Source of the DNA: a virus
Virus record (IMG/VR): IMGVR_UViG_3300017613_001174
Length of the DNA stretch: 42,133 nt
Strand: one strand, 5' to 3'
Shown here: positions 11,618 to 28,672 of the stretch, piece after piece
How positions within the stretch are numbered: the stretch's first letter is position 1
Layout: each line of letters starts with the position of its first letter
Position numbers and translations under genes: made by a program
Notes under the pieces: generated by a model
The model's input: only the letters and a program-made list of their open reading frames with translations
What the model was told of the DNA's origin: nothing
Databases searched by the model: none

Positions 11618-11626
11618 GTGTGAAAT

Positions 11627-11809: not shown

Positions 11810-11823
11810 TCGGCTCTTTTTTT
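11796..11823 (+). terminator. Rho-independent terminator
   Basis: agagcc (11797-11802) pairs with ggctct (11812-11817), 9-nt loop, then a T-run to 11823. Confidence 0.65.
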
Positions 11824-12178
11824 ATGCCCAAAGGATGTCCTTTAAGGGATTAGAGAAATCTTTCAATCTGTGGGCGAGACATAATCACAAATCATATCGG
11901 AATACATATAAAACGTCCTAGTGGCGTATCGGCTGGCTCACCGATGCTAAAAACAAGAGCTAACCTGACCTTGTGACCGTAAGTGCGAAAGCAAGGGCTG
12001 GCTCATCCGGGTACTAAGATGTGATTAGAGAGTATTCATAGGTTATCGCTTACCAGGGCCTATTGAGTTTATGCGACCGAAACGACCGAAGGGAAATAGT
12101 TGCAAGCCCTCCCTTAAATGAGGATTTTTATCTTTATCTTCATTTAGGGGGGGCACTTCCCTCCACTCTCTCAGGGAA

Positions 12179-12700: not shown

Positions 12701-12900
12701 AGCAACCGTTATCAGAACATAAAACCCAATTAAAAGAAATCAAAAACTGGCTAAAAAAAGAGCACAGTTATTTAGATGTATTAAATCAAAGACTTGCTGA
12801 GAGGGACCGTGAATTTAAATTTTACATGAGACAATACGAAACAGCTCTGGGAAGCGGGAAGAAATCATTTGATCGAAATGATTACCTGGTGAAACAATGA
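12697..12900 (+). CDS. Hypothetical protein
   Basis: ATGA overlap with the HNH stop. Confidence 0.55.
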   Translation: MKQPLSEHKTQLKEIKNWLKKEHSYLDVLNQRLAERDREFKFYMRQYETALGSGKKSFDRNDYLVKQ

Positions 12901-12914
12901 GAGGGAGGTAACAG

Positions 12915-13214
12915 ATGTCAACATTTACAGTAAAAGATATGGAAGAAGCAGCACAAAAAATGAAAGAGTTTTCGCATTTTGACACAATTATAGGCCATCC
13001 GTCGGTTCTTAATCCCATTGGCGATATACCGGGGATCAGTATTGTTGGCAATCCAACATTAACAAAAACAAAGCAAACGAAATTTCCATGTTCAAAAAAG
13101 AAACGAATTCGTAAAAAATTTGCAAAAAAATACACAAAACAGGTTCCGAGTGACGAGGTTTATTTATTAAATACAGATATATTTAACCGATGGAATCCAC
13201 GGTGGGAGATATGA
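12915..13214 (+). CDS. Hypothetical protein with a basic K/R-rich segment
   Basis: RBS gagggagg. Confidence 0.6.
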   Translation: MSTFTVKDMEEAAQKMKEFSHFDTIIGHPSVLNPIGDIPGISIVGNPTLTKTKQTKFPCSKKKRIRKKFAKKYTKQVPSDEVYLLNTDIFNRWNPRWEI

Positions 13215-13239
13215 TGCAAAATTGAAGGGGGATGAATAA

Positions 13240-13536
13240 ATGTCAACAAAACACACGTTTATATCAAAAGACGGTCATAAAACTAAAGTTTTAAGCCCGA
13301 CAAAGGCTATCCGAGAGAAATGTCTTGAATGTTCATGCTGGCAAAATGAAGAGGTTAAAGAATGTCCGGCGACCGATTGCGCCTTGTATCCGTTTCGGTT
13401 CGGGAAAGATCCGGGTCGTAAAAAAGTTGTTATGAGTGCTGAAAGAAAAGAGACGCTTAAAAAACAGTTAGAAACGGGAAGGAAAACGATGCAGGAATCA
13501 AATCCTATGCGTTTTGGCCCTACTGGCAGTCATTAA
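13240..13536 (+). CDS. Cys-rich conserved phage protein
   Basis: KAIREKCLECSCWQNEEVKECPATDCALYPFRFGK. RBS aaggggg. Confidence 0.65.
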   Translation: MSTKHTFISKDGHKTKVLSPTKAIREKCLECSCWQNEEVKECPATDCALYPFRFGKDPGRKKVVMSAERKETLKKQLETGRKTMQESNPMRFGPTGSH

Positions 13537-13628
13537 AATCAGAATAAAATTAAAAAGGCATAGGTAGACAAGGGGTGAGTGAATAAGACATCTTAAAACG
13601 CACGCGAGAGCTTTGAAGGAGGCAAACG

Positions 13629-13907
13629 ATGAAATTAACAAAAACAATCCCAGAGAGAAAGAAAACTGTTAAATTCAAATGGGCGTATCGTGATTCCATG
13701 CAGGCAACAGCGGGTTATTTTAAGGCTCGGAATAGTTTGAGTGGAAAACGCCGGGGAACTATGACAAAATGTGACTGGTGTCAGAAAAAGTTTAAAAAAG
13801 ATGAATGGTTTGCTTTGGCACAACCAGAACAAGGACAAACAGGTCCCACAAGGAATTGGTGTTTGTGCGATGATTGCGCAAAATCTATTGGAGCACCGAG
13901 GAGATGA
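13629..13907 (+). CDS. Zinc-binding small protein
   Basis: RBS gaaggagg. CDWC...CLCDDC. Confidence 0.65.
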   Translation: MKLTKTIPERKKTVKFKWAYRDSMQATAGYFKARNSLSGKRRGTMTKCDWCQKKFKKDEWFALAQPEQGQTGPTRNWCLCDDCAKSIGAPRR

Positions 13908-14374
13908 TAAAAAATAATTTATCAGAATATGAGCATCAGGTCCAGGTGTTCGAATGGGCGAAAATGATGGAAGTTCAAAAGCCAGAGTTAAAACTATTGA
14001 ATGCGTCGCTTATGGGGGTTCATGTTTCACTGAAGTTATTAAATAAATATAAAAAAGCGGGAGTTAAAAAAGGTTATCCTGATTTGTTTTTACCGGTTCC
14101 CAGAGGGGAGCATCACGGGCTATTTATTGAACTAAAAAAAATTGGTGGTAGAAAGCCAAAAGACGAACAAAAACAATGGTTAGAAGATTTACAAGCGCAG
14201 GGTTATGATTGTTACACATGTTTTGGTAGTGAGCAAACTATTTTTGTAATTATATCGTATTTGAATGGCAAGAAGTATGAGCGTTGTCCGGGAAGAGGTG
14301 CAATAGATTTAACTCTAAAAACCTCAGAACTCAAACGCTGGAAACCATCTGACATTAACAGCAAAAAATTCTAA
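13904..14374 (+). CDS. VRR-NUC domain nuclease
   Basis: ATGA-coupled ATG at 13904 after gaggag. EHQVQVFEW...GYPDLFL...GLFIELKK...Q..WL..L (PD-ExK core). Confidence 0.75.
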   Translation: MIKNNLSEYEHQVQVFEWAKMMEVQKPELKLLNASLMGVHVSLKLLNKYKKAGVKKGYPDLFLPVPRGEHHGLFIELKKIGGRKPKDEQKQWLEDLQAQGYDCYTCFGSEQTIFVIISYLNGKKYERCPGRGAIDLTLKTSELKRWKPSDINSKKF

Positions 14375-14441
14375 AATCACTAAAAGAGCTCGGCCTATCA
14401 TCGACTGAGCTCGAAAAACGAAAGGCTATGAGGTATCGGTA

Positions 14442-14663
14442 ATGGAAGACATTCAAGGGGCCATATTTGATTATGGTATTGGCGAAATGCATATCGTTCA
14501 GTTAACCCAGGACCAGCTAAAAGATGTGATCAAGCGCTATCCATATGAGCGGATCTCCACTGTTGGGGAACGTTCTAAACGCTCTATCAGCAGCTATCGT
14601 ATAATGTCATTACGGCGAATAGCCGCCATTAATAAAGCCGCGACAGACTGGTTGGAGTATTAA
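14442..14663 (+). CDS. Hypothetical protein
   Basis: ORF with a weak RBS (gagg). Confidence 0.5.
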   Translation: MEDIQGAIFDYGIGEMHIVQLTQDQLKDVIKRYPYERISTVGERSKRSISSYRIMSLRRIAAINKAATDWLEY

Positions 14664-14869
14664 ATCCACGCCCGGCTCCGAGGCGTTGTATCGGGTTCTC
14701 CTTTCGCCCGGCTGCCGTCACGGGTTAAGTAGCAGCGCACAGGGACGCTTGCGAAGGCGGCACTCGGCTACGACCAGGAATTATGAGCCACAGAGGTAAT
14801 GAAACCCAGTAAGTGCTTGCGAGCCAGGATAAAAATTGAAACCATTCTACCGATGCGAAAATCTTTTTC

Positions 14870-14908
14870 TTGACAAACCCGTAACCATGTGAAACACTTG
14901 TCTAATAT
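14870..14908 (+). promoter_or_regulatory. Possible promoter upstream of the packaging genes
   Basis: TTGACA at 14870-14875, but no good -10 at 17-18 nt. TAATAT at 14903-14908 is too far away. Confidence 0.25.
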
Positions 14909-14968
14909 CTGGTTATTATTAGGCGAGCGTTTTTTTATGTATTCAACAAATGATTAACAAAGTGTGTT

Positions 14969-15343
14969 ATGGGAAATCCAAACTGGGTACAGGGCGTTTC
15001 AGGGAACCCAAATGGAAGACCAAAAGGGGCGAGATCAAGGAACCAGGGCGACCTATTAGACCGTATTGTGGATGTTTGGAACGCTCTCGAAAATGACGAT
15101 TCTACAAAGCTTGAGACTCTCGCAAAGGAAAACCCACAATGGTTCTATAAGCACTTTCTATCCAAGATGATACCCCGCAATATCGATATAGGGCTATTTG
15201 CTGGGAGGTCCAGCGACCACAACACAATTACAGATGCAGACCTAATCGGCATTATCCGTAATGGCAATGGCAACGGTAAGCAACCACCAGAACCGAAGTT
15301 AAAAAGGGCTGGAAACGGTTCGACACGCTCACATAAAAAATGA
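14969..15343 (+). CDS. Putative small terminase / DUF5681-like protein
   Basis: N-terminal GNPNWVQGVSGNPNGRPKGARSRN motif. Lies immediately upstream of TerL. Confidence 0.5.
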   Translation: MGNPNWVQGVSGNPNGRPKGARSRNQGDLLDRIVDVWNALENDDSTKLETLAKENPQWFYKHFLSKMIPRNIDIGLFAGRSSDHNTITDADLIGIIRNGNGNGKQPPEPKLKRAGNGSTRSHKK

Positions 15344-15350
15344 GTGATAA

Positions 15351-16823
15351 ATGGGCCAAATATCTCCTAAAATAGCCGCAAAGCTCCTTAGACACCGTAG
15401 ATTATGCCGTTCAAACCTATCCCCATTTGTACGTGGCACCTTCCAAATCGTTTCCCCAGGCGACCAGTATAAGCATAATTGGCATATAGATGTTATCTGC
15501 GAGCACTTGGAGGCCGTATATAAAAAGCAACTATTCCGGCTTATTATAAACATGCCGCCGCGTTATATGAAATCCATATCGGCCAGCGTGGCATTTCCGG
15601 CATGGGTACTCGGCCAGGACCCGACTCAGCAAATAATGTGCGCAAGTTATTCCCATTTCCTTGCATTTAAACATTCAGGTGATTGTCGCTTAACAGTAGA
15701 AAGTCCCTGGTATCATTCTATTTTCCCAAATACTAAATTACAGATCGGCAATATCGAAAAACGGAAGTTTGAAACAACGGCAAAGGGCCATAGAGTCTCC
15801 ACGTCAGTGGGTGGCTCCACGGTTGGATTGGGTGGCAATATTTTAATAGTTGATGACCCGATTGACCCTGAACAGGCCTATAGCGAATTAGAGCGCGAGC
15901 GGTCAAACCGCTGGTATGATCAGACGTTCAGCACTCGGCTAAACGATAAAAAAACCGGCGCTATCATAATCATTATGCACAGGCTCCACCAGAATGATCT
16001 GTGCGGCCATGTATTAAAAAAAGCTGCCGATGATTGGACGGTTTTAAAGATACCCGGTGAATTCAAAAAAAAAGCTACTTATTGCGTAAAGTCTGTTACC
16101 GAAATTGCCGGGGCGCGGAAACGCAAGAAACATATTAAAAAAGATTCGTTGTTGCACCCTGACTATGAGGGCCGGGTTGAGATAGAACGAGCTAAAACAA
16201 CCCTGGGCAGCTATGGCTATTCATCACAATACCAACAGAACCCGTCTCCGGAAGGCGGCGGCATAATCAAACTAAAGTGGTTTGGGCGCTATAAATCGCT
16301 CCCGCCAATGAATGAGGTTGTGCAGGTCAGCCAGTTTTGGGACACCGCACAAAAATCCGACGAGGTATTACACGCTCCCTGGGTATGTGGCACATGGTAT
16401 TCGACATACACCCACCATTATCTGGTACATATTTATCGGGACTGGATGGACTATCCCACCGGAAAGCGCACATTAAAAAACCTGGCTACGAAATGGAAAC
16501 CCCACCAGATAGTGATCGAAGACAAGTCCACCGGCCAAAGCCTTATACAGGAGGTTGCAGGATTACCCACAATCCCGTTTGAGCCTGACGCCGACAAGAT
16601 AACCCGACTCAGCACCGAAAGTCCGCTGGTCGAGTCCGGCATTATCATACTGCCGGAAGAGGCCAACTGGCTATTTGAATTTGAAGAGGAAATCCAACTA
16701 TTTCCGAACTCGACATATAAAGACCAGGCTGATATGCTATCTATGGCGCTTAAGTTTTTCCGTACACGATTTCTAACTAACACGATCAATATAGGGGCCG
16801 GGGCCTCATCAATACCTCAATAA
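15351..16823 (+). CDS. terL: Terminase large subunit
   Basis: P-loop-like MPPRYMKS, Walker B ILIVDDPID, a C-terminal nuclease-like region, and the expected size and position. Confidence 0.9.
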   Translation: MGQISPKIAAKLLRHRRLCRSNLSPFVRGTFQIVSPGDQYKHNWHIDVICEHLEAVYKKQLFRLIINMPPRYMKSISASVAFPAWVLGQDPTQQIMCASYSHFLAFKHSGDCRLTVESPWYHSIFPNTKLQIGNIEKRKFETTAKGHRVSTSVGGSTVGLGGNILIVDDPIDPEQAYSELERERSNRWYDQTFSTRLNDKKTGAIIIIMHRLHQNDLCGHVLKKAADDWTVLKIPGEFKKKATYCVKSVTEIAGARKRKKHIKKDSLLHPDYEGRVEIERAKTTLGSYGYSSQYQQNPSPEGGGIIKLKWFGRYKSLPPMNEVVQVSQFWDTAQKSDEVLHAPWVCGTWYSTYTHHYLVHIYRDWMDYPTGKRTLKNLATKWKPHQIVIEDKSTGQSLIQEVAGLPTIPFEPDADKITRLSTESPLVESGIIILPEEANWLFEFEEEIQLFPNSTYKDQADMLSMALKFFRTRFLTNTINIGAGASSIPQ

Positions 16824-16833: not shown

Positions 16834-19035
16834 ATGGGTATATTTGATATTTTTAGAAAAGACAGTGGCCAGCCGGATCAGCCAGCGCCGGTTCCCACCG
16901 GAGAGGTCGGCTATTCATTTTCCACTATATACACCAGCGGTGATTTCCCACGGTACAACCCCGATAGCCTTTTGATCAACCGAGGCCGGGCCATATATGA
17001 CAAAATGATGGAGGACGACCAGGTAAAAGCGGTAATGCTGTTCAAGCAGATGGCCGTGGTATCCCGCAAGTATTTTTTCGATGTCAAGGTATCGGATGAT
17101 GGAGTTAAAGATACGGAGCAAGAGAAGATAGCTGATTTTTTCCAGGTAGTTATCAACTGTATTGTGGGGTCATGGTCCGACAAACTGATCGAAATTTTAT
17201 CTGCTATGAAATATGGGTTTTCTGTTTGCGAGAAAATATTTATTCCCGTAAAGTATGATTCCCGCGAGTACTGGGGGCTGCAGGACATAAAGCTTCGCCC
17301 GTTTAATTCGTTTGATGGCGGATTTAAAACAGACAAGCATGGAAATATTACCACAATAGTGCAAATGACCGACGATGCAACCGAAATTAAAATACCGCCG
17401 AACAAGGTGATTCACTTTGTATATCAGCCGGATATAGATAGGCATTATGGCGAGAGTGATCTTCGGACCGCATACCGGCCGTATTGGTCTAAAGATGTGG
17501 CAATTAAGTTTGAGAATATCCACCTGGAACGTCATGCTCACGGTTTTATATGGGCACAGACTGACCCGGCCAAGGGCGCTTTAACCAGTAAGCAGATATC
17601 AGACCTTGAATCCGTACTAGACAATATTACGGCAAAAACATCCTTGCATGTTCCGGCATCCGTTGAAATCAACACGATCCAACCGCTACGGACAGACGCC
17701 TATAATCTCGCAATCCAGCGGCATGATAAGGCTATCGCAAAATCCTTACTGGTTCCCAACCTACTCGGCCTATCAGAGCAAGGCTCCACCGGGAGCTATG
17801 CGCAAAGCTCAACACAGTTAGAAGCGTTTTTTTGGATACTGGACTTTATGGCCAATCGTTTGGCCGAGGCATTAAACGAGCAGTTATTTCGAGACCTTTC
17901 GATATGGAACTTCGGGACAGAAGATTTTCCACAGTTTAAATTTGAGCCGATCTCAGACTCCAAAAAGCTTGAAATCATCAAACAGTGGAACGAGATGGTC
18001 AAGGGCCACTCGGTTACGAAATCAGATTCGGACGAGGCGTATGTACGTCAGATTATGGACTTTCCCAAAAAAGAGGAGCAGGGCGAATTGCCCGACGATT
18101 CTGATCATCTTCCGGTCGAGCAACCAGATGAAGTTGAACTCAGCGATTGGCTTTCCGGGAAGGACCGGCAGTTAATAAAAGAATTTGCAGAAAGCCCATG
18201 GATGCGCCGGGTAAATTTTGTGAAGATCGAAAAAGGTTTAAATGCTCAGGATATGGAATTTTCCAGGGAACTATCTATGGTCATGGGCCAGGTGCGCCTA
18301 TCACTTGAAAAACAAATAGTGAGTGTTGGTGGCACCCGGAGCTGGGGAAACGTAAACCCCAAAGAAGTCGGGAGCATAAAAATCCCGGCGACTCTCGTGT
18401 CAAAGATCAGAAAGGTGATCCGCACGAATACCGAGGCGTCATTGAATAGCAATTACGAAACGGCGAGGCGCGAGCTACCAGTTAAAAAGTTTGCAAAGAT
18501 AAACCCTGGGATGACAAAAGACAAAGCCATGCAGTATCTATCATCTGCCGCAATGCGAGGGGCACAAACGCTTGATCACGATGTGATAGACGCTATCCGT
18601 ATCGTTTTGCAGAATGCGATTAAATACGACAAGAGCCTACGAGACACCATCGCCTCACTTAATGACAATACGACCTTGGCAACCACATTACCGCAAATAG
18701 ATGCTGCCGGTCGCGCGGTGAATATACCAGCAAGGCTTGAGACCATAGCACGCACTAATACCGCTGATGCTATGAATCAGGCCAGAACGAGTCTATTTAA
18801 TAATCCAGAGCTGAAGGGGTTTGTCCAAGCGTTTGAATATGCAGCGATTCTGGATGATAGGATAACTGATATATGCGAGCATTTAAACGGGAAAAAACTT
18901 AGGGACTTTGCCAACTACACCCCGCCAAATCATTTTAATTGTAGGTCGATATTAATTGCGATAACAAAGGTCGATGATTGGAACGGGAAAGAGTCGGCGC
19001 CACCTTCACAACGGCCACAAAAAGGTTTTTATTGA
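16834..19035 (+). CDS. Portal protein (Mu gp29/DUF935-like) fused to a Mu F / SPP1 gp7-like head morphogenesis domain
   Basis: Portal-like N-terminal ~430 aa. C-terminal RTNTADAMNQAR...DDRITDICEHLNGK...PPNHFNCRS is a MuF signature. Confidence 0.8.
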   Translation: MGIFDIFRKDSGQPDQPAPVPTGEVGYSFSTIYTSGDFPRYNPDSLLINRGRAIYDKMMEDDQVKAVMLFKQMAVVSRKYFFDVKVSDDGVKDTEQEKIADFFQVVINCIVGSWSDKLIEILSAMKYGFSVCEKIFIPVKYDSREYWGLQDIKLRPFNSFDGGFKTDKHGNITTIVQMTDDATEIKIPPNKVIHFVYQPDIDRHYGESDLRTAYRPYWSKDVAIKFENIHLERHAHGFIWAQTDPAKGALTSKQISDLESVLDNITAKTSLHVPASVEINTIQPLRTDAYNLAIQRHDKAIAKSLLVPNLLGLSEQGSTGSYAQSSTQLEAFFWILDFMANRLAEALNEQLFRDLSIWNFGTEDFPQFKFEPISDSKKLEIIKQWNEMVKGHSVTKSDSDEAYVRQIMDFPKKEEQGELPDDSDHLPVEQPDEVELSDWLSGKDRQLIKEFAESPWMRRVNFVKIEKGLNAQDMEFSRELSMVMGQVRLSLEKQIVSVGGTRSWGNVNPKEVGSIKIPATLVSKIRKVIRTNTEASLNSNYETARRELPVKKFAKINPGMTKDKAMQYLSSAAMRGAQTLDHDVIDAIRIVLQNAIKYDKSLRDTIASLNDNTTLATTLPQIDAAGRAVNIPARLETIARTNTADAMNQARTSLFNNPELKGFVQAFEYAAILDDRITDICEHLNGKKLRDFANYTPPNHFNCRSILIAITKVDDWNGKESAPPSQRPQKGFY

Positions 19036-19041: not shown

Positions 19042-19752
19042 GTGGTAAAATTAAATACTATAACAACGATTGAACTTTCATCTGCTTGTAATTTAAAATG
19101 CAGTTATTGTGTGAACAGGCTCATTGGTGTAAATTCAGATAGAGTACCAGGAATAATGAGCGATTCGGTGTTTAGTGCATCGGTAAAGCTTTTGAAGAGG
19201 TTGGTTGATAGAGGAACCCAAAAAGAAATCAGTTTAAACGGGAACGGCGAGAGCTTTTTAGACACATCACTCATAGAACGTGTTAAAACAGTAAGGAAGA
19301 TTCTCGGAGATAACAACTTATTGTTAATGTCAACAAATTCTACGCTTGTGACTAAAGAGATTGCTATTTCGTTGAAAGATGCGGGTTTGGATGAGATTCA
19401 TACGTCGATACATAAACCGGAAGCGGTTAGAAAGGCGTTGCCGATATTTTCTGATGCAGGGTTGAAAACCGTTATCAATGCAGGGGTTATTATATTTTCT
19501 CATAACTGGGCAGGGCAACTTGAAGATGAAAACAAAGTGCCCAAGGAAAGGTTGCCGGACATTCAATGCGACCCGCTTATTGACGGTAGAGGGTACGTGT
19601 CGGCAGAGGGGAACATAAGCCCATGTTGTTATGACTATCGGAATATAGGAGTATTTGGGACTGTATTTAATAAAGATATACTGGATAAAGAATACGGCGC
19701 ATATGAGTTGTGTCGTGGATGCCATCAGGTAATACCACCGGAATTATTATGA
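19042..19752 (+). CDS. Radical SAM enzyme with a SPASM/twitch-like C-terminal Cys motif (paralog 1)
   Basis: CNLKCSYC (19087-19110), NGNGESFLD, C-x13-G-x4-C (CDPLIDGRGYVSAEGNISPC) and CRGC. GTG start. Confidence 0.8.
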   Translation: MVKLNTITTIELSSACNLKCSYCVNRLIGVNSDRVPGIMSDSVFSASVKLLKRLVDRGTQKEISLNGNGESFLDTSLIERVKTVRKILGDNNLLLMSTNSTLVTKEIAISLKDAGLDEIHTSIHKPEAVRKALPIFSDAGLKTVINAGVIIFSHNWAGQLEDENKVPKERLPDIQCDPLIDGRGYVSAEGNISPCCYDYRNIGVFGTVFNKDILDKEYGAYELCRGCHQVIPPELL

Positions 19753-20486
19753 AAATTATTGAGACAATCAACACCATTGAGCTTTCGTCGGTCTGTGACA
19801 ATAAGTGCCAGTATTGCCCGGCGCGATTGCAGTCCGAGCATAGACTTACTGGCTTTATGTCATGGGCGACATTTAAGCACGCTATTGATAAAGCCTTAGT
19901 CTTTGCGCGAGCCGGAACACAGCGGGAAATCAACCTGTTCGGGGTAGGTGAGCCAACGCTGCATAAATATATAGTGGCTATGGTACGCTATGCCAGGGAG
20001 CATTTACCGTTTAATCAGGTTTTGCACCTGAATACCAATGGCAACACCATGACGATGCAACTCGCCAAGGACCTAAAGGACGCCGGCATCACGTCGATTG
20101 ACATAACGGGCCACGATCATGCTGTAACTGCAAAAACAATTAAAATATTCCGAGAATTAGAAATAGTTGGAAATTTGTCATATGATTTTGTCACTGCTCC
20201 GAACAACTGGGCGGGTCAAGTGGATTGGTTTGAACCTGACACCCGGCTACCAGTATATCGTAATAATCCCTGTCCGTGGCTGGAACGTGGCCAGGTTATG
20301 GTGATGAGTGACGGCCTTATCACGACTTGCTGCATCGATGCCTTTGGGCGAAACGTTATTTGCGACATATCAGACAACCTTGAAAATTTTGAGGTTGCAG
20401 AAAGTGAGCTATGTAAAAGCTGTCATCACAAAATCCCGGAAACATCATCAAAATTTGAGCAGACCTTAGACTTGATGGCGGTGTAA
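19749..20486 (+). CDS. Radical SAM enzyme with a SPASM/twitch-like C-terminal Cys motif (paralog 2)
   Basis: ATGA-coupled ATG at 19749. CDNKCQYC (19794-19817), FGVGEPTLH, C-x13-G-x4-C (CPWLERGQVMVMSDGLITTC) and CKSC. Shares TIELSS, GTQ.EI and NWAGQ with paralog 1. Confidence 0.8.
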   Translation: MKIIETINTIELSSVCDNKCQYCPARLQSEHRLTGFMSWATFKHAIDKALVFARAGTQREINLFGVGEPTLHKYIVAMVRYAREHLPFNQVLHLNTNGNTMTMQLAKDLKDAGITSIDITGHDHAVTAKTIKIFRELEIVGNLSYDFVTAPNNWAGQVDWFEPDTRLPVYRNNPCPWLERGQVMVMSDGLITTCCIDAFGRNVICDISDNLENFEVAESELCKSCHHKIPETSSKFEQTLDLMAV

Positions 20487-20507
20487 TTACCACGAAAGGA
20501 AATAATC

Positions 20508-21752
20508 ATGCCATATGATAGCAATGAAAAATTACCGGATACCGTAAAAGTTCTTCCAGATGCTGCACAAACGATCTGGCGCAATGCGTTTAACTCGGCC
20601 AATAAGTCTGGCAAAGATGACGAGTCTTCCTCCAAGATCGGATGGGGTGCCGTAAAGAACGCTGGCTGGTCAAAGGGTCAAGATGGCAACTGGGCCAAGT
20701 CGCAGAGTGACACCGGCCACGAATTCGATGTTGAGGTGATGTCGGTCGGAACCTGGAACGGTGACAAGTTCACAACCGAACATCTACAAAACCTTGCCCA
20801 CAACTTCGATGCGTTGAAGGATACGGTTAAGCCATTTTTAAAGCTCGGCCATAACCAGAAACAGGAAGATGGTAAACCCTCCATGGGCTGGGTTAAGGCG
20901 CTGAAGGTATCAGGTGACAAACTTATTGCAACATTAACACAAGTGCCTGAAGTTGTTTATAAAGCGATCAAGGGTGGGCGATATAAACGCCTATCAGCAG
21001 AGATATATTTCAATATGCGCGACAAGGCCGGTAATATCCGCAAGCGTGTATTACGAGCGGTCGCACTCCTCGGCGCCGATGTTCCCGCAGTCGATAACCT
21101 GGCAGATATAGACGCCTACTTAACTCAATCCATTCTGAATGAACAGTTTGACAAGGTAATGGCGTATACCTGGCAAATGAATAATTTTGATAAAAAAGAA
21201 CTAACTATCAACGGAATTGTAAACCAGACAAGAGGTGATACCATGGCTGATGATGAAAAGAGGGATAAAGAAATAAAAGAGTTTAAGGACCGCCTTGAAC
21301 TCGCTGAAAAAGAAAAGGCGGACGCCCAAAAACTGGCGGATGATAACGCCACCAAGCTGAAGGAATTCGAGGAAAATAAAGCCGCCGAAGAAAAAGCATC
21401 CAATGAGAAGGAATTTAAGGCTTTCTGTGAGGCGGCCGTGAAAGGCGGAAAGCTTACGCCGGCATCCAGGGACGAGCTCGTCAAGGGTTTCGTCTATGAT
21501 GCAAAGCAGGGGTATCTGTGTCCGTTCAGCGTGTTTAAAAAATACGTGGAAGACACAAAAATCATCCTTGATATGCGCGAGTATGGGCACGATACCGACA
21601 ACACAAATTATGGGGATGGTGCCACGGTCCAAAAGATCGTCGATACCAAAGCCACGGAATACGCAGCAAAGCATAAGGTTGATTACAGTACCGCAATGCT
21701 CGCTGTTCTGAACGATAACCCGAAACTTGCAAACGCTTACGTCAAAGAATAG
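20508..21752 (+). CDS. ChaB-like N-terminal domain fused to a Mu gpI-like prohead protease/scaffold
   Basis: MPY..KLPDTVKVLPDAAQTIWRNAFNSA...GWGAVK...GNWAK matches the ChaB pattern. GKPSMGWVKALKV...GRYKRLSAEIYF is Mu I-like. The C-terminal half has a charged coiled coil. Confidence 0.75.
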   Translation: MPYDSNEKLPDTVKVLPDAAQTIWRNAFNSANKSGKDDESSSKIGWGAVKNAGWSKGQDGNWAKSQSDTGHEFDVEVMSVGTWNGDKFTTEHLQNLAHNFDALKDTVKPFLKLGHNQKQEDGKPSMGWVKALKVSGDKLIATLTQVPEVVYKAIKGGRYKRLSAEIYFNMRDKAGNIRKRVLRAVALLGADVPAVDNLADIDAYLTQSILNEQFDKVMAYTWQMNNFDKKELTINGIVNQTRGDTMADDEKRDKEIKEFKDRLELAEKEKADAQKLADDNATKLKEFEENKAAEEKASNEKEFKAFCEAAVKGGKLTPASRDELVKGFVYDAKQGYLCPFSVFKKYVEDTKIILDMREYGHDTDNTNYGDGATVQKIVDTKATEYAAKHKVDYSTAMLAVLNDNPKLANAYVKE

Positions 21753-21784
21753 CCCTTGATTGGGCGCAGGAGGTGTAAAGAATT

Positions 21785-22159
21785 ATGGCAACTGAAAATA
21801 AAAATTGGTTCCTGACCTTTGAAGCGGCAGAGGATCTTTCATCGTTGGAGTACCAGATTGTTACGATTGCTGACGACAAGATTGCCAATGATGGCCAGGA
21901 AGCCACTGGGGTACTGGTATCTAAACCGAAATCAGGTGAACATGGATCGATCATGTTTATGGGGATCGGAAAGGCCAGGGCCGGTGGAGCAATCGCAAAA
22001 AATGGTGTGTTTAAGACCGTCACATCCGGGTATATCTCGGCGGCAACTTCTGGTGGCTGGGTAAATGGTCGCGCACTTGAGGCAATCACGTCAGGGAGTA
22101 TCGGTAAAATTTTCTGGCATGGCGTAAACCAGTATCAGGTTAGTTCGATTGATGGATAA
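21785..22159 (+). CDS. Head decoration-like protein (DUF2190-type)
   Basis: Small Gly-rich beta protein between the protease and capsid genes. RBS aggagg. Confidence 0.55.
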   Translation: MATENKNWFLTFEAAEDLSSLEYQIVTIADDKIANDGQEATGVLVSKPKSGEHGSIMFMGIGKARAGGAIAKNGVFKTVTSGYISAATSGGWVNGRALEAITSGSIGKIFWHGVNQYQVSSIDG

Positions 22160-22175
22160 AAGGAGGTGATGAGTA

Positions 22176-23138
22176 ATGGGAGCACGAGGACACGATTTAC
22201 ATATTGACCAGCCACTGAGCAACGTGGCAATGAGCTACAGGCCGGAGGGCATGATCGCTGATATTGTAGCGCCGGAGGTTCCGGTGCAAAAGCAATCAGA
22301 TTCATATACGATATGGTCACAAGCCGATGCCCTGCGGACTGAGGACGATAAACGAGCCCCGGGAACCGAGGCTAACCTGATCACTCGTGGTGTATCAAGT
22401 GATACGTATTTCGCCAATAACTTTGCGCTGAAATCCGCATTGACATTGGAGGACCGCGAGAATATGGACGCCGCTTTCATCCAACAGTTGCGAAACGGCA
22501 AAGTTGAATACATCAAAGATAAGCTGACCCTTAACTGGGAAAAACGTCTTGCGGACAAGGTGACGAGTGGCTCAAATGTTGGCAGCTATTCAACAATAGA
22601 TTCTGACTGGCAAGATTATACCACGGGCCAATCAGATCCTATCGGAGATATGCAAACGGCGATTACCAATGTTCAGGATGCCACCGGGTATCGTCCCAAC
22701 CGTTGCCTCATGGGTGGCCTTGCTTGGCGTCATTTCCGAAGGCATGAAGACGTTATCGATCTTTTGTATGGGTCCTCTGGCCAGGGCAAAGTCCGTTATG
22801 CCTCACGCGAACAGGCAAAGGAAATCTTCGAGGTGGATCAACTTATCATTGGTGAAACATACTACAACAGCGGCGCTGAAGGTCAAAGCCTAGCATTGCA
22901 ACATATGTGGTTAGATTATGTCTTGGTCTATTATGCACCTTCACGGCCCTCTCGGGAAACGCCCAGTTTCATGTATTCATTTCGTTGGAAAAAACCCGCT
23001 ATCCCAAATATGGCGGCAGAGGTTCATCCGTTCGACCGCAAGACAAAATCAGAGGAGGTCGAGCTTGGCTATTACCAGGACGAAAAAATCACTGGCGCTA
23101 ACCTGGGGTTTCTTTTAACTCATGTAACCAGCGTTTAA
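22176..23138 (+). CDS. Major capsid protein
   Basis: Size, position after the protease and decoration genes, strong RBS, and a strong hairpin downstream. Confidence 0.8.
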   Translation: MGARGHDLHIDQPLSNVAMSYRPEGMIADIVAPEVPVQKQSDSYTIWSQADALRTEDDKRAPGTEANLITRGVSSDTYFANNFALKSALTLEDRENMDAAFIQQLRNGKVEYIKDKLTLNWEKRLADKVTSGSNVGSYSTIDSDWQDYTTGQSDPIGDMQTAITNVQDATGYRPNRCLMGGLAWRHFRRHEDVIDLLYGSSGQGKVRYASREQAKEIFEVDQLIIGETYYNSGAEGQSLALQHMWLDYVLVYYAPSRPSRETPSFMYSFRWKKPAIPNMAAEVHPFDRKTKSEEVELGYYQDEKITGANLGFLLTHVTSV

Positions 23139-23171
23139 CCATCGTTCTTAACAGACACCCATAGCAGAGGA

Positions 23172-23199
23172 GCGACCAGTCTCACGCGAGACTGGTCGC
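23172..23199 (+). terminator. Perfect 12-bp hairpin after the capsid gene (attenuator or stabiliser; no U-tract)
   Basis: gcgaccagtctc acgc gagactggtcgc. Confidence 0.5.
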
Positions 23200-23220
23200 C
23201 ATTCAAACAGGAGTTATCAC

Positions 23221-23382
23221 ATGCTGCGCGATGATGCGATAAAAAAGGGCTTGATAAAGCCAAAGGATAAAGAAGAGGCCGACCGATTCGGGATGGATTT
23301 TCAGCCGGTCAACATACCGAAATCCGAAAGACCAAACGTGTCGACGACTCCAAAGTATCGGCATAAAAAGAAATCAAGATAA
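23221..23382 (+). CDS. 53-aa basic peptide (below the ORF-track cutoff)
   Basis: ATG 7 nt after caggag. Hand translation gives MLRDDAIKKGLIKPKDKEEADRFGMDFQPVNIPKSERPNVSTTPKYRHKKKSR. Confidence 0.35.
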   Translation: MLRDDAIKKGLIKPKDKEEADRFGMDFQPVNIPKSERPNVSTTPKYRHKKKSR

Positions 23383-23406
23383 AACAGGATATTGGGTGAT
23401 ATCTAA

Positions 23407-26325
23407 ATGAGAATAATATTTCATGTTGGTGGCATGCCTTTTAACGGCTCCACTATTTCGGATGGAAAGAGCCTCGGCGGGTCAGAAAGCGCCGGGTATT
23501 ATATGGCGAGGGAGATGGCCAGGTTAGGCCATGAAGTTGTAATTTTTACCTCGTCACCTGACACCGGTTTTTCAGATGGCGTGTTTTTTGAATGGATGGG
23601 GGAACGCTCGGAGCAATACCCGCTCGGCCACAGGTTCGACGTTTCCAGCAAGGTTCCCGCAGATGTAACTATCATCCAACGTATACCGTTTGCGTTCCGC
23701 AAGCCGATCAACTCAAAATTAAATATATGGTGGGTACATGATATCGGTTTGATGCGTCACTCCATGATCGTGCAGCAACAACTCGTTAATATCGATCAGA
23801 TATTTACCGTTTCAGAATTTCATAAAAACCAATTCGCAAAAGTGTTCGATATTCCAAAGCATATCATTACCGCAACATTCAACGGGGTTGATTATACGTA
23901 TCCTGAAGAACTGGAAGCGCAAAATTTACCACGGGTACCAAAGTCGCTGGTTTTTGCATCGAGACCTGAGCGAGGACTTGAAAACCTTGTGGGCCGCAAC
24001 GGAATAATGAAAAGCCTGCCTGATTGTCACCTGTATGTATGTGGGTATGACAATACCGTTCCCCAGATGAGGGACTATTACCGGTATTTATATAACAGGT
24101 GCGACCAACTGGACAATGTGACAAACCTTGGCAGCCTCGGTAAAAATGAATTATATAAGTTACTTGCAAAGTCGGAGTTGTGTGTATACCCAACCACCTT
24201 TGAAGACACCAGCAACATGATGTTGCTTGAATCCAATGCGGTCGGTACGCCGTTTATTGGGCCAAAGGATCGCGCAGCACTTCCGCAAACCGGCCATAAC
24301 GCCGGTGTGAAATTTGTGCCATTAAAAGACGGGAAAATCCACAAACAGGCATTTGTGAAATGTATAAAAGAATGTCTCGAAGCATCCACCTGGGATAGGC
24401 TCCACATTAAAGCGCTCGGCAAAGAACAGACATGGAAAGCGGCTGCTATGCAATGGGATCAGGTATTCAACGACCTGTTATATTATAAATGCAATGATAA
24501 AAGGCGTTTATACAAACACCTGGAACATCATAGCGATATCATTGCCATAGGTGAGGACCACCCGGCACCGGACATGCAACTTCTGGAAAGTGTTCTTCCC
24601 GGGTTCAGAAAAAACTACGAGTTTTTGTATAATAACGATTTCAAGGGCCACTATGATCGCTATTATGAGTATGAGGAAAGCAGGGGCGTAAAATATGGCC
24701 CTGAAGATCTAACCGGGCAGCCCAGGTTTGAGCACACGGCACGGCTGATTGATGAAATGGGTCCAGGTGCAATACTTGATTACGGATGTGCCCACGGACA
24801 TTATGTTATGAACCTTATGAACCGGTATCCGCATATACGTTTTTTCGGGGCTGATATAAACGCGAAAAACATAGAGATTGCGAGGCGTTGGGCACTTGAT
24901 GTCATTGGCGACAAGTCCGAGCAGGATCAGGCGCTGGACACGGTTAATAATTTGTTTTTTCAGTCAACAGCAGATGATGATTTTGACCTTGCTTGCAATG
25001 TGGACGTTATCTTGCTTCAGGAAATTTTGGAGCATGTTCCCAATCCGGGAACTTTGGTTGAACAGTTAAGTACGCACCTGGCACCGGAAGGGCATTTTTT
25101 AATATCGGTCCCGTATGGTCCATGGGAGGCCCTGGGGTATAAAAAACACCCTGGATGGAGAGCGCATATCCATCATATCGAACGTGAGGACCTTTATGAA
25201 CTATTTAGGGCACAGGAAGACTTTAAACTGATCGCGTTGCCACACAGAGACAATATGGGCCACTATATTGTCACGTTTAAGTATAACCCTGATATACCTA
25301 TCGGCAAAATCGATTATGTCCGCAAATTAAAACAACAGGCACCACGTGAAACATTATCAGTTTGCATGATCGCAAAAAATGAGCAGCACACTATTGGAAG
25401 GACCATTGAGTCGATAATAGATATTGCGGATGAAATAATTATAGGCCTGGATGAAACTACAACAGATGAAACCTACGCAGTGGCCATGCAGTTTGTTGGC
25501 CCTGAAAATATCATCCCGATTAAATCACCGATGGAAACCGGGTTCGCCGTGGCAAGGCAGGTAACTATCGATGCCGCTTCTATGGATTGGATATTGTGGA
25601 TTGACTGCGACGAAACTTTCGAGCAAGCTGAGAACCTACCGAAATACTTACGCAATAACTGTATGGATGGATATGGAATCAAGCAACACCACTATGCAGT
25701 TGAGCCTGCGGAGTTGTTTAAAACAGATTACCCCTGCCGGTTATTCCGCAATAATAAGGGCATGAAATTTTTTGGCTTTGTCCACGAGCACCCGGAAAAA
25801 GAAATGAACAAGGGCCCTGGTAAAACTCATCTTATCGATGACGTGGCTATTATGCATACCGGATATCCGACCGAGCAGGTGCGGCGGAAACGGTTTGAGC
25901 GCAATTTCCCGTTGATACAAAAAGATCGGGAGCTTAATCCCGATAGAAATCTTGGAAAATTCCTGTGGGTACGAGACCTCGCCCACTTCGCCCGGTACAG
26001 CATGGAGCAAAACGGCGGGGTTGTAACCCCACGGATTGAAGATGCAGCTGCCCAGGGAATTGAGATGTGGCGTGAACTTTTAAAGACTGGCGACCTTCGG
26101 CTGATCACGCAAAGTATCCCGTTTTATTCCGAATGTGTTTATCGATTAATGAACGGCAACGGCATTGATTTCACCCTGGCGATCACTTCGGGTAAGGGTG
26201 GCAATCGTTTTGTATTGCCGGACCGAAAGATCGAGGGTTTGTTTGCCAGCATCGAGGACATTAAAAAGCTAAATAAAGTTATCGTTGACAAGTCTGTCGA
26301 GCATTACGAAAATAAATATTATTAA
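23407..26325 (+). CDS. Tri-domain glycosyltransferase (GT4-like) - SAM methyltransferase - glycosyltransferase (GT2-like) fusion, 972 aa
   Basis: GGSESAGYYMAREMARLGHEV and FEDTSNMMLLESNAVGTPFIG (GT-B/GT4). ILDYGCAHG...EILEHVPNP (class I MTase, from about aa 456). LSVCMIAKNE...IIGLDETTTDET...WIDCDE (GT2, from about aa 650). Confidence 0.85.
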   Translation: MRIIFHVGGMPFNGSTISDGKSLGGSESAGYYMAREMARLGHEVVIFTSSPDTGFSDGVFFEWMGERSEQYPLGHRFDVSSKVPADVTIIQRIPFAFRKPINSKLNIWWVHDIGLMRHSMIVQQQLVNIDQIFTVSEFHKNQFAKVFDIPKHIITATFNGVDYTYPEELEAQNLPRVPKSLVFASRPERGLENLVGRNGIMKSLPDCHLYVCGYDNTVPQMRDYYRYLYNRCDQLDNVTNLGSLGKNELYKLLAKSELCVYPTTFEDTSNMMLLESNAVGTPFIGPKDRAALPQTGHNAGVKFVPLKDGKIHKQAFVKCIKECLEASTWDRLHIKALGKEQTWKAAAMQWDQVFNDLLYYKCNDKRRLYKHLEHHSDIIAIGEDHPAPDMQLLESVLPGFRKNYEFLYNNDFKGHYDRYYEYEESRGVKYGPEDLTGQPRFEHTARLIDEMGPGAILDYGCAHGHYVMNLMNRYPHIRFFGADINAKNIEIARRWALDVIGDKSEQDQALDTVNNLFFQSTADDDFDLACNVDVILLQEILEHVPNPGTLVEQLSTHLAPEGHFLISVPYGPWEALGYKKHPGWRAHIHHIEREDLYELFRAQEDFKLIALPHRDNMGHYIVTFKYNPDIPIGKIDYVRKLKQQAPRETLSVCMIAKNEQHTIGRTIESIIDIADEIIIGLDETTTDETYAVAMQFVGPENIIPIKSPMETGFAVARQVTIDAASMDWILWIDCDETFEQAENLPKYLRNNCMDGYGIKQHHYAVEPAELFKTDYPCRLFRNNKGMKFFGFVHEHPEKEMNKGPGKTHLIDDVAIMHTGYPTEQVRRKRFERNFPLIQKDRELNPDRNLGKFLWVRDLAHFARYSMEQNGGVVTPRIEDAAAQGIEMWRELLKTGDLRLITQSIPFYSECVYRLMNGNGIDFTLAITSGKGGNRFVLPDRKIEGLFASIEDIKKLNKVIVDKSVEHYENKYY

Positions 26326-26337: not shown

Positions 26338-26796
26338 ATGTACGCAACATATTCAGATTGTTCCGTTCGATACCCAATACTGAGCAAATGGAATCCGTCC
26401 AGTGTATCGGCTGTTAATTCGGACCTTGTATATTATGCCGAAAAAGAAATCGACGGTCGCCTGGCTTCACACTTTGCGGTGCCATTCACTGATGTGCCGC
26501 CGACCATATCCGACCTAACCATCGATTATGTATATCTGAAAATGTTGCGGTCGCGGGATCTGGATAAAGCCGCTGAGTTTGAAAAAATACTTGATGCCCG
26601 AATTGAACGGCTCAAGGAAGGCGAGGAATATATTTTTACCGAGTCAGGCACCACCATTGCACCTGCAGGTGCCAGTGATGGAGTATGGTCGAACACGAAG
26701 GACTATTACCCAGTTCATTCTATACTGGATGCCGATTCACCTTACGCCGGATTTGATTCGGATATGATAGACGACGAGGAAGACATCAGGAGCTAA
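26338..26796 (+). CDS. Head-tail adaptor (Mu gp36/DUF1320-like)
   Basis: MYATYSDCSVRY...AEKEIDGRLASHFAVPF pattern and position. Confidence 0.6.
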   Translation: MYATYSDCSVRYPILSKWNPSSVSAVNSDLVYYAEKEIDGRLASHFAVPFTDVPPTISDLTIDYVYLKMLRSRDLDKAAEFEKILDARIERLKEGEEYIFTESGTTIAPAGASDGVWSNTKDYYPVHSILDADSPYAGFDSDMIDDEEDIRS

Positions 26797-27709: not shown

Positions 27710-28672
27710 ATGGCTTACGGACAGGACGGACATTTCGGAATAGGTTTTCAGGATAGCATGGGCACCAGTCTCACCGATTCAATGGATTATTTCGGATTTG
27801 TATCTGAAACATTGACACAGAATATCGAGGAGTTGATGAGCGAGAGCCTATCATCCAGGTATGAGGAACCAGATGATTATGGTGGTATGCGGGAGATAGG
27901 CGGTGACATTGTCGGGGAAGTGCAGCCCCTTTCCTTTGGGAAGTTTCTAAAAGGATGGTGCGGCCAGGAGAGTGTTAGCTTTCAGGAAAGCTGTTACAGT
28001 CACTTGTTCGTACCGAGGCTAACCGACTGGCAAGAGGAAAACGCCGCACTTCCCCCAATGACTGTCGAGGTATACCGGGATACTGGGTCGGCATATCTTT
28101 ATTATGACGCAATGATCGATACGCTCAATATCGAAATCGCGCAGGGTGCGTTGATAAAATTTACAGCCGGGTTCAAAGGGTCTCAATTTTCATGGGCTGA
28201 AAAAACCACACCGGCCTATGATCCTGGGAGCTATTTCGCGTGGGACATTGCATCTATCAGCCTGGCGGGGGTGGCCATGACGGAATTTTCAAGTCTCAGC
28301 CTGAACTTTTCGAATAGCCTTGCAGGTAAAGCGTATATCGATGGCAATAAATACGCCTCCCGGATTCTGCGGGACGGTTTTAGGACCGGAGAAATTTCGG
28401 GCACACTCTTGTTATCCGGTGACGATGAGGCTCGGAATTTTAAAAACCGCACCAAGCAACGATTGCTTATATCTATCACAGATCCGACAACGGTAATGAA
28501 CCATCATAACCAGTTGATTATAGATATACCGAAAATGGTATATACCGAGTTCCCTGCGAACATATCTGGGCCCGGATTGGTGGAGGTGTCCTTTTCTGCT
28601 AAGGCCAAGTATGACTCGGATTCATCTTATGCCATGCAGTTTACACTGACAAATACCGTCGAGGCATACTAA
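27710..28672 (+). CDS. Major tail (tube) protein candidate
   Basis: Strong RBS aaggagg. Immediately upstream of the chaperone/tape-measure genes. Confidence 0.6.
   Translation: MAYGQDGHFGIGFQDSMGTSLTDSMDYFGFVSETLTQNIEELMSESLSSRYEEPDDYGGMREIGGDIVGEVQPLSFGKFLKGWCGQESVSFQESCYSHLFVPRLTDWQEENAALPPMTVEVYRDTGSAYLYYDAMIDTLNIEIAQGALIKFTAGFKGSQFSWAEKTTPAYDPGSYFAWDIASISLAGVAMTEFSSLSLNFSNSLAGKAYIDGNKYASRILRDGFRTGEISGTLLLSGDDEARNFKNRTKQRLLISITDPTTVMNHHNQLIIDIPKMVYTEFPANISGPGLVEVSFSAKAKYDSDSSYAMQFTLTNTVEAY

Follow-up and report, generated by a model that had tools for sequence, protein, structure and literature searches.

The window analysed here is a stretch of 42,133 nt of DNA from an uncultured phage (IMG/VR record IMGVR_UViG_3300017613_001174), in which domains were called with Pfam, PHROGs and NCBIfam. 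Within its head operon, the window encodes a 972-aa fusion of two glycosyltransferase (GT) domains and one methyltransferase (MT) domain, arranged as GT4-MT-GT2, and a pair of radical S-adenosylmethionine (SAM) enzymes, which we refer to as rSAM1 and rSAM2. A preliminary description of positions 19042-26325 had read the gene order as portal-MuF, two rSAM genes, ChaB-protease/scaffold, decoration protein, capsid protein, a hairpin, a basic 53-aa open reading frame (ORF), the fusion and an adaptor. The positions of the ORFs and their Pfam and PHROGs matches bear out this gene order and these domain calls. The enzyme genes had moreover been taken for one interleaved island. They do reside in the head operon, but they fall into two units, namely a core fusion (47/47 loci of relatives) and accessory rSAMs (18/47).

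The fusion and the rSAM pair of the head operon

The fusion is encoded on the + strand at positions 23407-26325 and matches the Pfam families Glyco_transf_4 (8e-8), Methyltransf_23 (5e-17) and Glycos_transf_2 (7e-15). Its GT4 domain (aa 1-362; 23407..24492) is predicted to be a retaining-type enzyme of the GT-B fold, and its closest relatives are MshA (1e-14), GlgM and PimB in profile searches and MshA (1.5e-15), BshA and PimA in Foldseek searches. A helical linker (aa 363-438) precedes the class-I SAM-dependent MT domain (aa ~439-625; 24721..25281), whose PDB profile matches include phosphoethanolamine N-methyltransferases and a D-glucose O-methyltransferase. The remaining part (25339..26325) is formed by the GT2 domain, which belongs to the GT-A type (aa ~645-820), and by C-terminal helical repeats (aa ~821-972). 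Residues G24-G25-S26-E27, K246 and E275 of the GT4 domain, D458, G464, E542 and H543 of the MT domain, and D682 and D733xD735 (i.e., the DxD motif) of the GT2 domain are invariant in sets of 26 and of 42 homologues. No transmembrane segment was found in the fusion or in the two rSAMs. Judging from the invariant catalytic motifs and the lack of transmembrane segments, the enzymes of the fusion look active and cytoplasmic.

Searches of the PDB with a family profile of the GT2 domain retrieved GmaR (8e-34), SunS (9e-23) and ThuS (1e-20), and the single sequence found GmaR (6e-13) and SunS (2e-12). SunS is also its top match in NCBIfam (1.6e-15), where the best polysaccharide GT2 reaches only 8e-5. 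An AlphaFold2 (AF2) model of the fusion built from 42 homologues had a predicted local distance difference test (pLDDT) score of 91.4 and a predicted template modelling (pTM) score of 0.90. A Foldseek search of the PDB with this model again placed SunS first (9e-16), and the alignment spans 306-360 columns and therefore reaches past the GT-A core into the helical repeats (residues ~823-914). Like SunS, ThuS and GmaR, the fusion has a GT-A domain with a DxD motif followed by a helical-repeat region; it differs from these proteins in that GT4 and MT domains precede the GT2 domain. The whole GT4-MT-GT2 architecture was matched by no solved protein in the PDB fold search. By sequence and by fold, protein and peptide glycosyltransferases are the nearest relatives of the GT2 domain, and together with its genomic position they suggest an acceptor of this kind. 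One of these relatives, GmaR, is a flagellin N-acetylglucosamine (GlcNAc) transferase, whose tetratricopeptide repeat (TPR) domain has been proposed to recognise flagellin (PMC9638930); in SunS, too, the helical repeats are implicated in substrate recognition.

The rSAM1 gene (19042..19752, + strand) encodes 236 aa from a GTG start (Pfam Radical_SAM, 3e-10) and is followed by the rSAM2 gene (19749..20486, + strand; 245 aa; Radical_SAM, 4.5e-10). The ORF of rSAM2 opens at GTG 19710, where the preliminary description had placed its start. The Radical_SAM ORF is there, but its start is most likely ATG 19749, because this codon forms an ATGA overlap with the stop codon of rSAM1, through which rSAM2 is probably translationally coupled to rSAM1. 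For rSAM1, the gene call of the source (P0001; 198 aa, from Met39) would drop the CxxxCxxC cluster motif, so that translation must start at GTG 19042; from there, the protein is full-length and in line with 52 homologues. Automated gene calls may systematically shorten the rSAM1 family.

Both rSAMs are paralogues (34% identity, E 2e-36), which have an NWAGQ motif and all eight Cys in common. The cluster motif C16xxxC20xxC23 (CX3CX2C) of rSAM1 is invariant in 53 sequences and also present in rSAM2, and the auxiliary-cluster residues C176, C195/C196, C224 and C227 of rSAM1 are invariant in 53 homologues. This pattern of invariant Cys argues for a single auxiliary cluster (i.e., a twitch domain) rather than a full SPASM domain. 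Neither protein carries a CX2CX5CX3C motif, an N-terminal extension or a domain for the recognition of ribosomally synthesised peptides that are modified after translation (RiPPs), and their C-terminal Cys number five only. They differ from SPASM-type RiPP maturases in that they lack the seven-Cys motif and a RiPP recognition element, and in that their neighbour, the 53-aa ORF (orf53), is devoid of Cys and not linked to the presence of rSAMs.

With the AF2 model of rSAM1 (pLDDT 94.2, pTM 0.91), Foldseek aligned BtrN (4m7t) over the full length with an E-value of 6e-13 and template modelling (TM) scores of 0.70/0.67. The structural runners-up, MoaA (7.5e-7) and then SkfB, EpeE and viperins, are weaker by about six orders of magnitude. 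BtrN is also the top PDB sequence match of both paralogues (8e-8 for rSAM2). BtrN is a sugar-alcohol dehydrogenase, namely the twitch rSAM enzyme of butirosin biosynthesis; BlsE and AbmM are other rSAMs acting on carbohydrates. Like BtrN, rSAM1 and rSAM2 are ~240-250 aa long and combine an abridged barrel and the CX3CX2C motif with one Cys4 auxiliary cluster in a short C-terminal β-hairpin/helix domain. Unlike BtrN, they are tandem paralogues in a phage head operon, and with 18-22% identity to it they are not its orthologues. The predicted fold points to a sugar-like alcohol rather than a peptide as substrate, and the reaction may be a two-electron oxidation of a secondary alcohol in a sugar or cyclitol. 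NCBIfam matches of the rSAMs reached 20-65 bits compared to cut-offs of 340-855, many of the weak ones being peptide maturases. The viral structure library BFVD contains no close counterpart of rSAM1 (best match 3e-7), and the fold likeness of rSAM1 to the rSAMs of the Campylobacter phages CP220/CP21 and to QueE is distant (E 7e-7 or worse, with a high root mean square deviation).

In its base composition, rSAM1 (GC content 0.398; 0.376 at third codon positions) departs from rSAM2, the fusion and all head neighbours (~0.46 and ~0.50, respectively), which suggests that rSAM1 was recently acquired or replaced by recombination. The rSAM1 family comprises more than 212 members of ~240 aa, all of them on phage-sized metagenomic contigs. 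Its matches to AhbD/NirJ/MoaA-type families are weak (E 1e-5 to 1e-12) and far under the cut-offs. In viromics, rSAM genes of viruses, 'ahbD' among them, are reported as auxiliary metabolic genes (PMC13452462), and the rSAM family of head operons could be mislabelled as such a gene, under names like 'AhbD-like' or 'Fe-S oxidoreductase'. A search of the literature at our disposal returned nothing relevant on rSAM and GT genes in phage structural modules.

A core fusion and accessory rSAM genes in related head modules

In IMG/VR, 26 contigs carry a full-length homologue of the fusion, and the capsid gene adjoins it each time. We also searched from the capsid side, employing a profile of 12 capsid proteins that yielded 506 relatives. 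The best 80 of these 506 were taken and gave 76 non-redundant loci, 47 of which have at least 5 kb of sequence 3' of the capsid gene. The three-domain fusion lies 3' of the capsid gene in 47/47 of these loci, at capsid identities of 32-75%. In this lineage, the fusion thus belongs to the core genes of the head module. A protein database search identified 883 clusters of fusion proteins at E < 1e-30; the best 120 of the 883 are all full-length (940-1000 aa), come from contigs of at most 47 kb and bear only generic names. Source databases name the family 'glycosyltransferase involved in cell wall biosynthesis'. A tblastn search of 50,697 phage records with the fusion gave six partial matches to single domains, from uncultured Caudoviricetes and Listeria phage fragments, and none from an actinophage.

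The fusion-bearing head module is also found in metagenome-assembled genomes (MAGs) of Desulfobacterales (the closest, with 50% identity), other Desulfobacterota, Flavobacteriaceae and Gammaproteobacteria. One of these copies is probably a prophage, because it lies inside a 982-kb scaffold. Gram-negative anaerobes and marine bacteria, not mycobacteria, seem to be the hosts of the lineage. A cellular role was considered for GT4-GT2 homologues in MAG chromosomes (L125-L139) and rejected, as no flagellin or S-layer context was found; a number of them are prophages carrying SPP1-type portals, SU10-type capsid genes and Phage_tube_2.

The distribution of the rSAM genes was counted in 47 loci that span the region from portal to fusion. 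Two rSAMs are present in 15 of them, one in 3 and none in 29. When the loci are ranked by capsid similarity, those with and those without rSAMs are intermingled, a pattern suggestive of repeated gain and loss. The rSAMs are dispensable, patchy accessory genes of the lineage. Their presence tracks neither the C-terminal tails of the capsid protein nor a duplication of the small head protein nor the ChaB domain.

A check for co-occurrence of rSAMs and fusion, which had been proposed in the preliminary description, revealed a systematic link. The fusion is present in 22/22 informative rSAM-bearing loci and on all contigs (4/4) found by an exact look-up of the rSAM proteins. An IMG/VR scan anchored on the rSAM profile yielded 44 family members, all within the structural module, and the fusion was there in every locus reaching past the capsid gene. 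The preliminary description knew of no such arrangement in a head module. It is not unique to the window but common in metagenomes, with rSAM and fusion together on more than 40 IMG/VR contigs besides the 883 fusion clusters.

The position of the rSAM genes varies among these relatives. Most commonly, they lie between portal and protease. An rSAM gene is found directly 3' of the fusion in L032, L033 and L117; L081 has it between capsid gene and fusion, and L225 immediately before the tail tube; in L077, L079 and L083, it lies directly 3' of the capsid gene on contigs that stop before the fusion region. The linkage between rSAMs and fusion is one-way and survives rearrangement, with the genes staying in the late operon. 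Apparent counter-examples were examined and rejected. The rSAM of L003 is a QueE beside FolE, TGT and QueC and next to a DNA polymerase, i.e., part of a 7-deazaguanine cluster and of a DNA-modification context unlike that of the head-operon family. Those of L004-L010 score 25-38 bits with the hidden Markov model (HMM) of the rSAM family or are undetected, and represent a different family.

Besides rSAMs, the portal-protease slot of relatives carries sulfotransferases as well as FkbM and class-I methyltransferases. In L193 (9271-12816), the order is portal, sulfotransferase, rSAM, class-I MT, FkbM MT, rSAM and protease. Extra GTs, a short-chain dehydrogenase/reductase (SDR) and an acyl-carrier protein occur elsewhere between the portal and adaptor genes of relatives; in L012 (12838-15629), a FabG-like SDR and an acyl-carrier protein lie 3' of the fusion. 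Sulfotransferases, FkbM and class-I methyltransferases and extra GTs are all typical of glycan tailoring, and the enzymes of the slots point to sulfated, methylated and possibly acylated products. L016 (3181-5455) likewise carries further enzymes in these slots. Between fusion and adaptor, several relatives, such as L016 (12928-17880) and L022 (9714-14247), hold 3-5 kb that encode fn3, invasin/Big-like, Lcl C-terminal and right-handed β-helix domains; such fn3/Big/β-helix genes, none of which is present in the window, may encode head fibres or decoration proteins.

A related combination is found in a different type of phage. In the SU10-like podophage L241 (IMGVR_UViG_3300028299_000108, 4289-15783), portal, capsid protein and adaptor are of the SU10 type. 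Its capsid-adaptor interval contains a fusion of permuted order (GT2-MT-GT4), two rSAM genes, a transketolase-like gene and a further MT-like gene. One of its two rSAMs has a SPASM domain, and its top PDB matches are the sugar-acting rSAMs BlsE and AbmM. Judging from its sequences, L241 is an independent assembly of the fusion and rSAM combination, from a permuted fusion and different rSAMs. In L130 (4818-14333, a Candidatus Hebobacteria MAG), a GT4-GT2 fusion without MT lies directly 3' of an SU10-type capsid gene, in a module with an SPP1-type portal and a Phage_tube_2 tail tube. Similar fusions of ~690-770 aa occur in MAGs of Armatimonadota and Bacillota. The link between fusion and capsid gene holds across three unrelated types of head module. 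Two outcomes that would have spoken against a joint role, namely that the two gene sets never co-occur or are found as independent morons, are not what we observed, because co-occurrence is systematic, survives rearrangement and recurs in L241.

Head module, small elements and candidate acceptors

From 16.8 to 26.8 kb, the window consists of a single, tightly packed block of + strand genes with gaps of 6-82 nt or overlaps, in which promoter-like sites are not enriched (19 compared to 15.0 ± 3.6 expected). The close packing and the lack of promoter enrichment are consistent with co-transcription, without proving it. The portal-MuF fusion (16834..19035, + strand; 733 aa; Portal_Mu 4e-45 and Phage_Mu_F 4.5e-11 in Pfam) forms the upstream edge of the variable 'tailoring slot' and lies 5' of the rSAM in essentially all rSAM-anchored loci. 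On the other side of the slot, a 414-aa protein (20508..21752, + strand) combines ChaB (2.6e-9) with a Mu-type head protease/scaffold (Mu-like_Pro 1e-6; PHROG head maturation protease 7e-41). The major capsid protein is of the lambda-E type (22176..23138, + strand; 320 aa; Phage_cap_E 1.4e-8; PHROG major head protein 1e-61). The downstream edge is formed by a head-tail adaptor similar to Mu gp36 (26338..26796, + strand; 152 aa), which was assigned from conserved synteny and a match to Phage_Mu_Gp36 of 1.3e-4, under the Pfam cut-off. Relatives fit up to 5 kb of extra genes between fusion and adaptor.

This module had been described as a canonical Mu-type head operon. Portal, MuF and protease are indeed matched and the adaptor weakly so, but the capsid protein matches PF03864 (lambda-E type), not the Mu gpT type, and no transposase was seen among the window ORFs scanned. 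The likeness of the module to that of Mu thus appears confined to portal, MuF, protease and adaptor.

The interval between capsid gene and fusion contains two small elements, both of which had been noted before and proved real. A perfect stem-loop with a 12-bp stem and a 4-nt loop (23172..23199, + strand) lies 34 nt past the capsid stop codon. Its minimum free energy is -27 kcal/mol (z = -4.26), and 0/200 shuffled sequences fold as well. The hairpin was considered as an intrinsic terminator after the capsid gene and rejected, as it has no T tract and was not called as a terminator; it may be an RNA stabiliser or an attenuator that sets the ratio of capsid to enzyme expression. The second element, orf53 (23221..23382, + strand), encodes a small basic protein of 53 aa. 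Its homologues (48-92 aa) are present in 24/112 loci, always between capsid gene and fusion and regardless of rSAMs. They share 15 conserved N-terminal residues (MLRDDAIRxGLIKPT), followed by a variable C-terminal part, and orf53 has no match in Pfam, PHROGs or NCBIfam.

Two head proteins are candidate acceptors of a glycan. The first is the small head protein of 124 aa (21785..22159, + strand), which had been called a decoration protein. Its position in the head module stands, but the only match is a weak one to phrog_673 'head scaffolding' (1.8e-8), and a profile of 14 homologues found no relative in the PDB. This decoration- or scaffold-like protein is conserved in all relatives and often duplicated or extended to ~237 aa. 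The second candidate is the capsid protein with its C-terminal tail THVTSV. The last six residues of capsid proteins are rich in Ser and Thr (0.33 compared to 0.13 overall; tails such as VTSV, GVGSSQ and VNSST), in the closer ~2/3 of the family only. We regard these tails as a weak hint at the acceptor. Outside the head, the tail tube protein (27710-28672) is a third candidate.

The left arm of the window (1-15343) encodes an Enc34-type single-stranded DNA-binding protein, an N6/N4 DNA methylase, an HNH endonuclease (12179-12700) and, just 5' of the terminase region, a VRR-NUC nuclease. With this gene content and no transposase seen in the scanned ORFs, the phage is probably not Mu-like in replication. 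Relatives encode an archaeo-eukaryotic primase (AEP), an SNF2 helicase or DnaB. A strand switch occurs near 7.7-8.0 kb, and the window contains no tRNA or Rfam family. A hint of a Maf-like glycosyltransferase at 3646-4260 (- strand; 204 aa; Pfam Maf N-terminal domain 5e-4, below the cut-off) was discarded, since a PDB sequence search lent it no support and returned a spermidine synthase as top match (0.05).

Putative glycosylation of the virion and alternative readings

To our knowledge, only a few mycobacteriophages have been shown to glycosylate their virions with enzymes of their own, which alters antibody recognition. It has reportedly been described for Che8, Corndog and Myrna. The decoration of capsid and tail-tube subunits in these phages is proposed or shown to be the work of phage GTs, joined in cluster O by an O-methyltransferase; these GTs are cytoplasmic and use host sugar donors, in which they would resemble the enzymes of the window. 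A further likeness is that the GTs and the MT of the window are encoded in the late operon, directly 3' of the capsid gene. However, the tblastn search of the 50,697 phage records detected no sequence relation of the fusion to the actinophage GTs (i.e., the Che8 gp110/Corndog gp38 group), and unlike the mycobacteriophage enzymes, the fusion unites three activities in 972 aa, is a core gene 3' of the capsid gene and is accompanied by rSAMs, sulfotransferases and FkbM methyltransferases.

A single viral polypeptide with two GT domains and one MT domain has a parallel in A064R of the chlorovirus PBCV-1. This three-domain GT-GT-MT enzyme adds two rhamnoses to the glycan of the capsid protein Vp54 and methylates the last of them (Speciale et al. 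2020 PNAS via PMC7826918). A064R differs from the fusion in that it comes from a giant eukaryotic virus and has the order GT-GT-MT, not GT4-MT-GT2; it is absent from the PDB sequence or fold matches listed for the fusion. We know of no rSAM partner of A064R.

We favour a reading in which the fusion glycosylates a virion protein and the rSAMs tailor the glycan, and assign it a probability of about 0.5. This reading is supported because the fusion is core and lies beside the capsid gene, its GT2 domain resembles protein glycosyltransferases, and the rSAMs resemble sugar enzymes and travel with the fusion. Domain identities, fold relationships, conserved catalytic residues, the core or accessory distribution of the genes and their co-localisation are what the analysis shows; from them we infer which protein accepts the glycan, in which order the steps follow, what chemistry the rSAMs perform and how the phage benefits. 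In a first tier, the soluble 972-aa enzyme would be made alongside the structural proteins. The GT2 domain and the helical repeats would recognise a folded structural protein and transfer the first sugar onto Ser, Thr or Cys. The capsid protein is the probable acceptor, and the small head protein or the tail tube may serve as well. The GT4 domain would then put on a further sugar, and the MT domain would methylate the glycan, probably as a cap. In a second tier, the rSAM paralogues would cleave SAM reductively and remove a hydrogen atom from a carbinol carbon, either in the sugar itself or in the nucleotide-sugar from which it derives. The outcome would be a keto-sugar or a sugar that is epimerised or rearranged in some other way, and the glycan would differ from that of relatives without rSAMs. 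In other relatives, the same slot would supply sulfation and extra O-methylation. The phage may benefit through shielding, stability or adhesion of the particle.

The preliminary description had proposed that the enzymes act together on the particle. Comparative genomics supports such a joint role once it is recast as a core fusion with accessory tailoring by rSAMs, the virion being the presumed target of the enzymes. The suggestion that they crosslink the particle found no specific support, as the rSAM fold points to a sugar-like alcohol, not a peptide.

Several observations weigh against glycosylation of the virion with tailoring by rSAMs. The rSAMs share only 18-22% identity with BtrN, and twitch/SPASM enzymes acting on peptides (SkfB, EpeE and anSME) rank next after it. 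The GT2 domain scores 56.9 bits compared to the SunS equivalog cut-off of 350 (NCBIfam TIGR04195); as judged by sequence, it is a relative of SunS, not a SunS equivalog. The distant third of the family carries the fusion, yet no Ser/Thr-rich capsid tail. No gene for nucleotide-sugar biosynthesis was found in the scanned ORFs of the window, whose left arm was scanned in part. HNH endonucleases, Rha and ADP-ribosyltransferase occupy the same slots as the enzymes, and because the slots also hold such obvious morons, position alone is no proof of function. Furthermore, the phage is uncultured and known from sequence alone, with 0 relatives among the 50,697 phage records (megablast with 16 kb; tblastn with rSAM1).

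The rank of the peptide-acting enzymes raises the question whether the rSAMs act directly on a head protein, by turning Ser or Cys into formylglycine like anSME, by epimerising a residue like EpeE or by forming a thioether or C-C crosslink, in a radical-based capsid maturation or crosslinking independent of glycosylation. The usual position of the rSAM genes amid assembly genes, from portal-MuF to protease/scaffold, would fit this role, as would anSME as second PDB sequence match (0.006), SkfB and EpeE among the next structural matches and the weak peptide-maturase matches in NCBIfam. We nevertheless consider it unlikely: BtrN aligns over the full length, and every peptide-modifying rSAM fits worse by about six orders of magnitude; the rSAMs have no RiPP-recognition domain and no full SPASM motif, and 29/47 relatives that share the capsid, protease and head proteins do without them. 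Moreover, they were never found without the fusion, and they relocate beside it or among sulfotransferases and sugar-type methyltransferases. An extreme variant, in which the rSAMs oxidise or crosslink the capsid protein itself, seems quite unlikely to us. As to the fusion, it might, together with the rSAMs, modify a target outside the virion, such as a host envelope glycan or lipid-linked intermediate (comparable to the polymerising GT and terminating MT enzymes in O-antigen or S-layer glycan pathways), a small molecule or the phage DNA. GT-MT multidomain enzymes occur in polysaccharide chain termination, the GT4 relatives MshA, BshA, PimA and WaaG act on small molecules, lipids or lipopolysaccharide, and the name of the family in source databases refers to cell wall biosynthesis. 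Lysogenic-conversion GTs, however, are normally membrane-linked and encoded outside late operons, whereas the fusion has no transmembrane segment and is core in a late structural operon, 3' of the capsid gene in three unrelated types of head module. Its GT2 domain is nearest to protein or peptide glycosyltransferases, and the scanned part of the window contains no gene of a hydroxymethyl-pyrimidine pathway, which together make a non-virion target improbable.

The slots themselves allow for a simpler explanation, namely that rSAMs and fusion are unrelated neighbours and that the portal-protease and capsid-adaptor junctions are permissive insertion sites. These junctions also hold HNH homing endonucleases, Rha, ADP-ribosyltransferase, an amidase and a helix-turn-helix protein, rSAM1 has its atypical GC content of 0.398, and the fusion is without rSAMs in 29/47 loci. 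Mere neighbourhood is rather improbable, however, in view of the one-way dependence in 22/22 loci and the rSAM-anchored scans, the rSAMs that adjoin the fusion in L033, L032, L081 and L117, and the independent assembly of the combination in L241. Very improbable is a RiPP-like system, in which the SunS-like GT2 domain and the rSAMs would act on orf53 as their substrate and give a glycocin- or sactipeptide-like product or a modified internal protein. Although SunS and ThuS act on small peptides encoded beside them, and orf53 with its conserved N-terminus and variable C-terminal part lies directly 5' of a SunS-like enzyme, it has no Cys and is present in only 24/112 loci compared to the universal fusion. 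It also occurs in phages without rSAMs, e.g. L029, and neither a leader-recognition domain nor export or protease genes were found for such a system.

Two elements are new in glycosylation of the virion as we propose it. One is that a large uncultured lineage has a fused enzyme as a core gene next to the capsid gene, and the other is that sugar-type rSAMs were recruited recurrently. The group comprises at least 500 IMG/VR contigs, with prophage-like copies in Desulfobacterota, Bacteroidota, Gammaproteobacteria and other phyla. Tentatively, we suggest that this large uncultivated group of tailed phages might build glycosylated virions as an obligatory part of head assembly, and that its sub-lineages might diversify the glycan by rSAM chemistry, sulfation and methylation. 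If true, glycosylation of phage virions would extend far beyond a few mycobacteriophages and be common rather than exotic, and a capsid-linked glycosylation enzyme would be a core head gene of a widespread environmental phage lineage. The small twitch rSAM genes of phage structural operons would obtain a first functional context. Virion glycans tailored by rSAMs would add a new class to the surface chemistry of viruses, one that arose at least twice independently, in the Mu-portal/lambda-E lineage and in an SU10-like podophage. The variable rSAM, sulfotransferase and FkbM slots would then point to an arms race at the particle surface, be it over adsorption to glycans of the host or the matrix, over protection against proteases or defence lectins, or over the stability of the particle.

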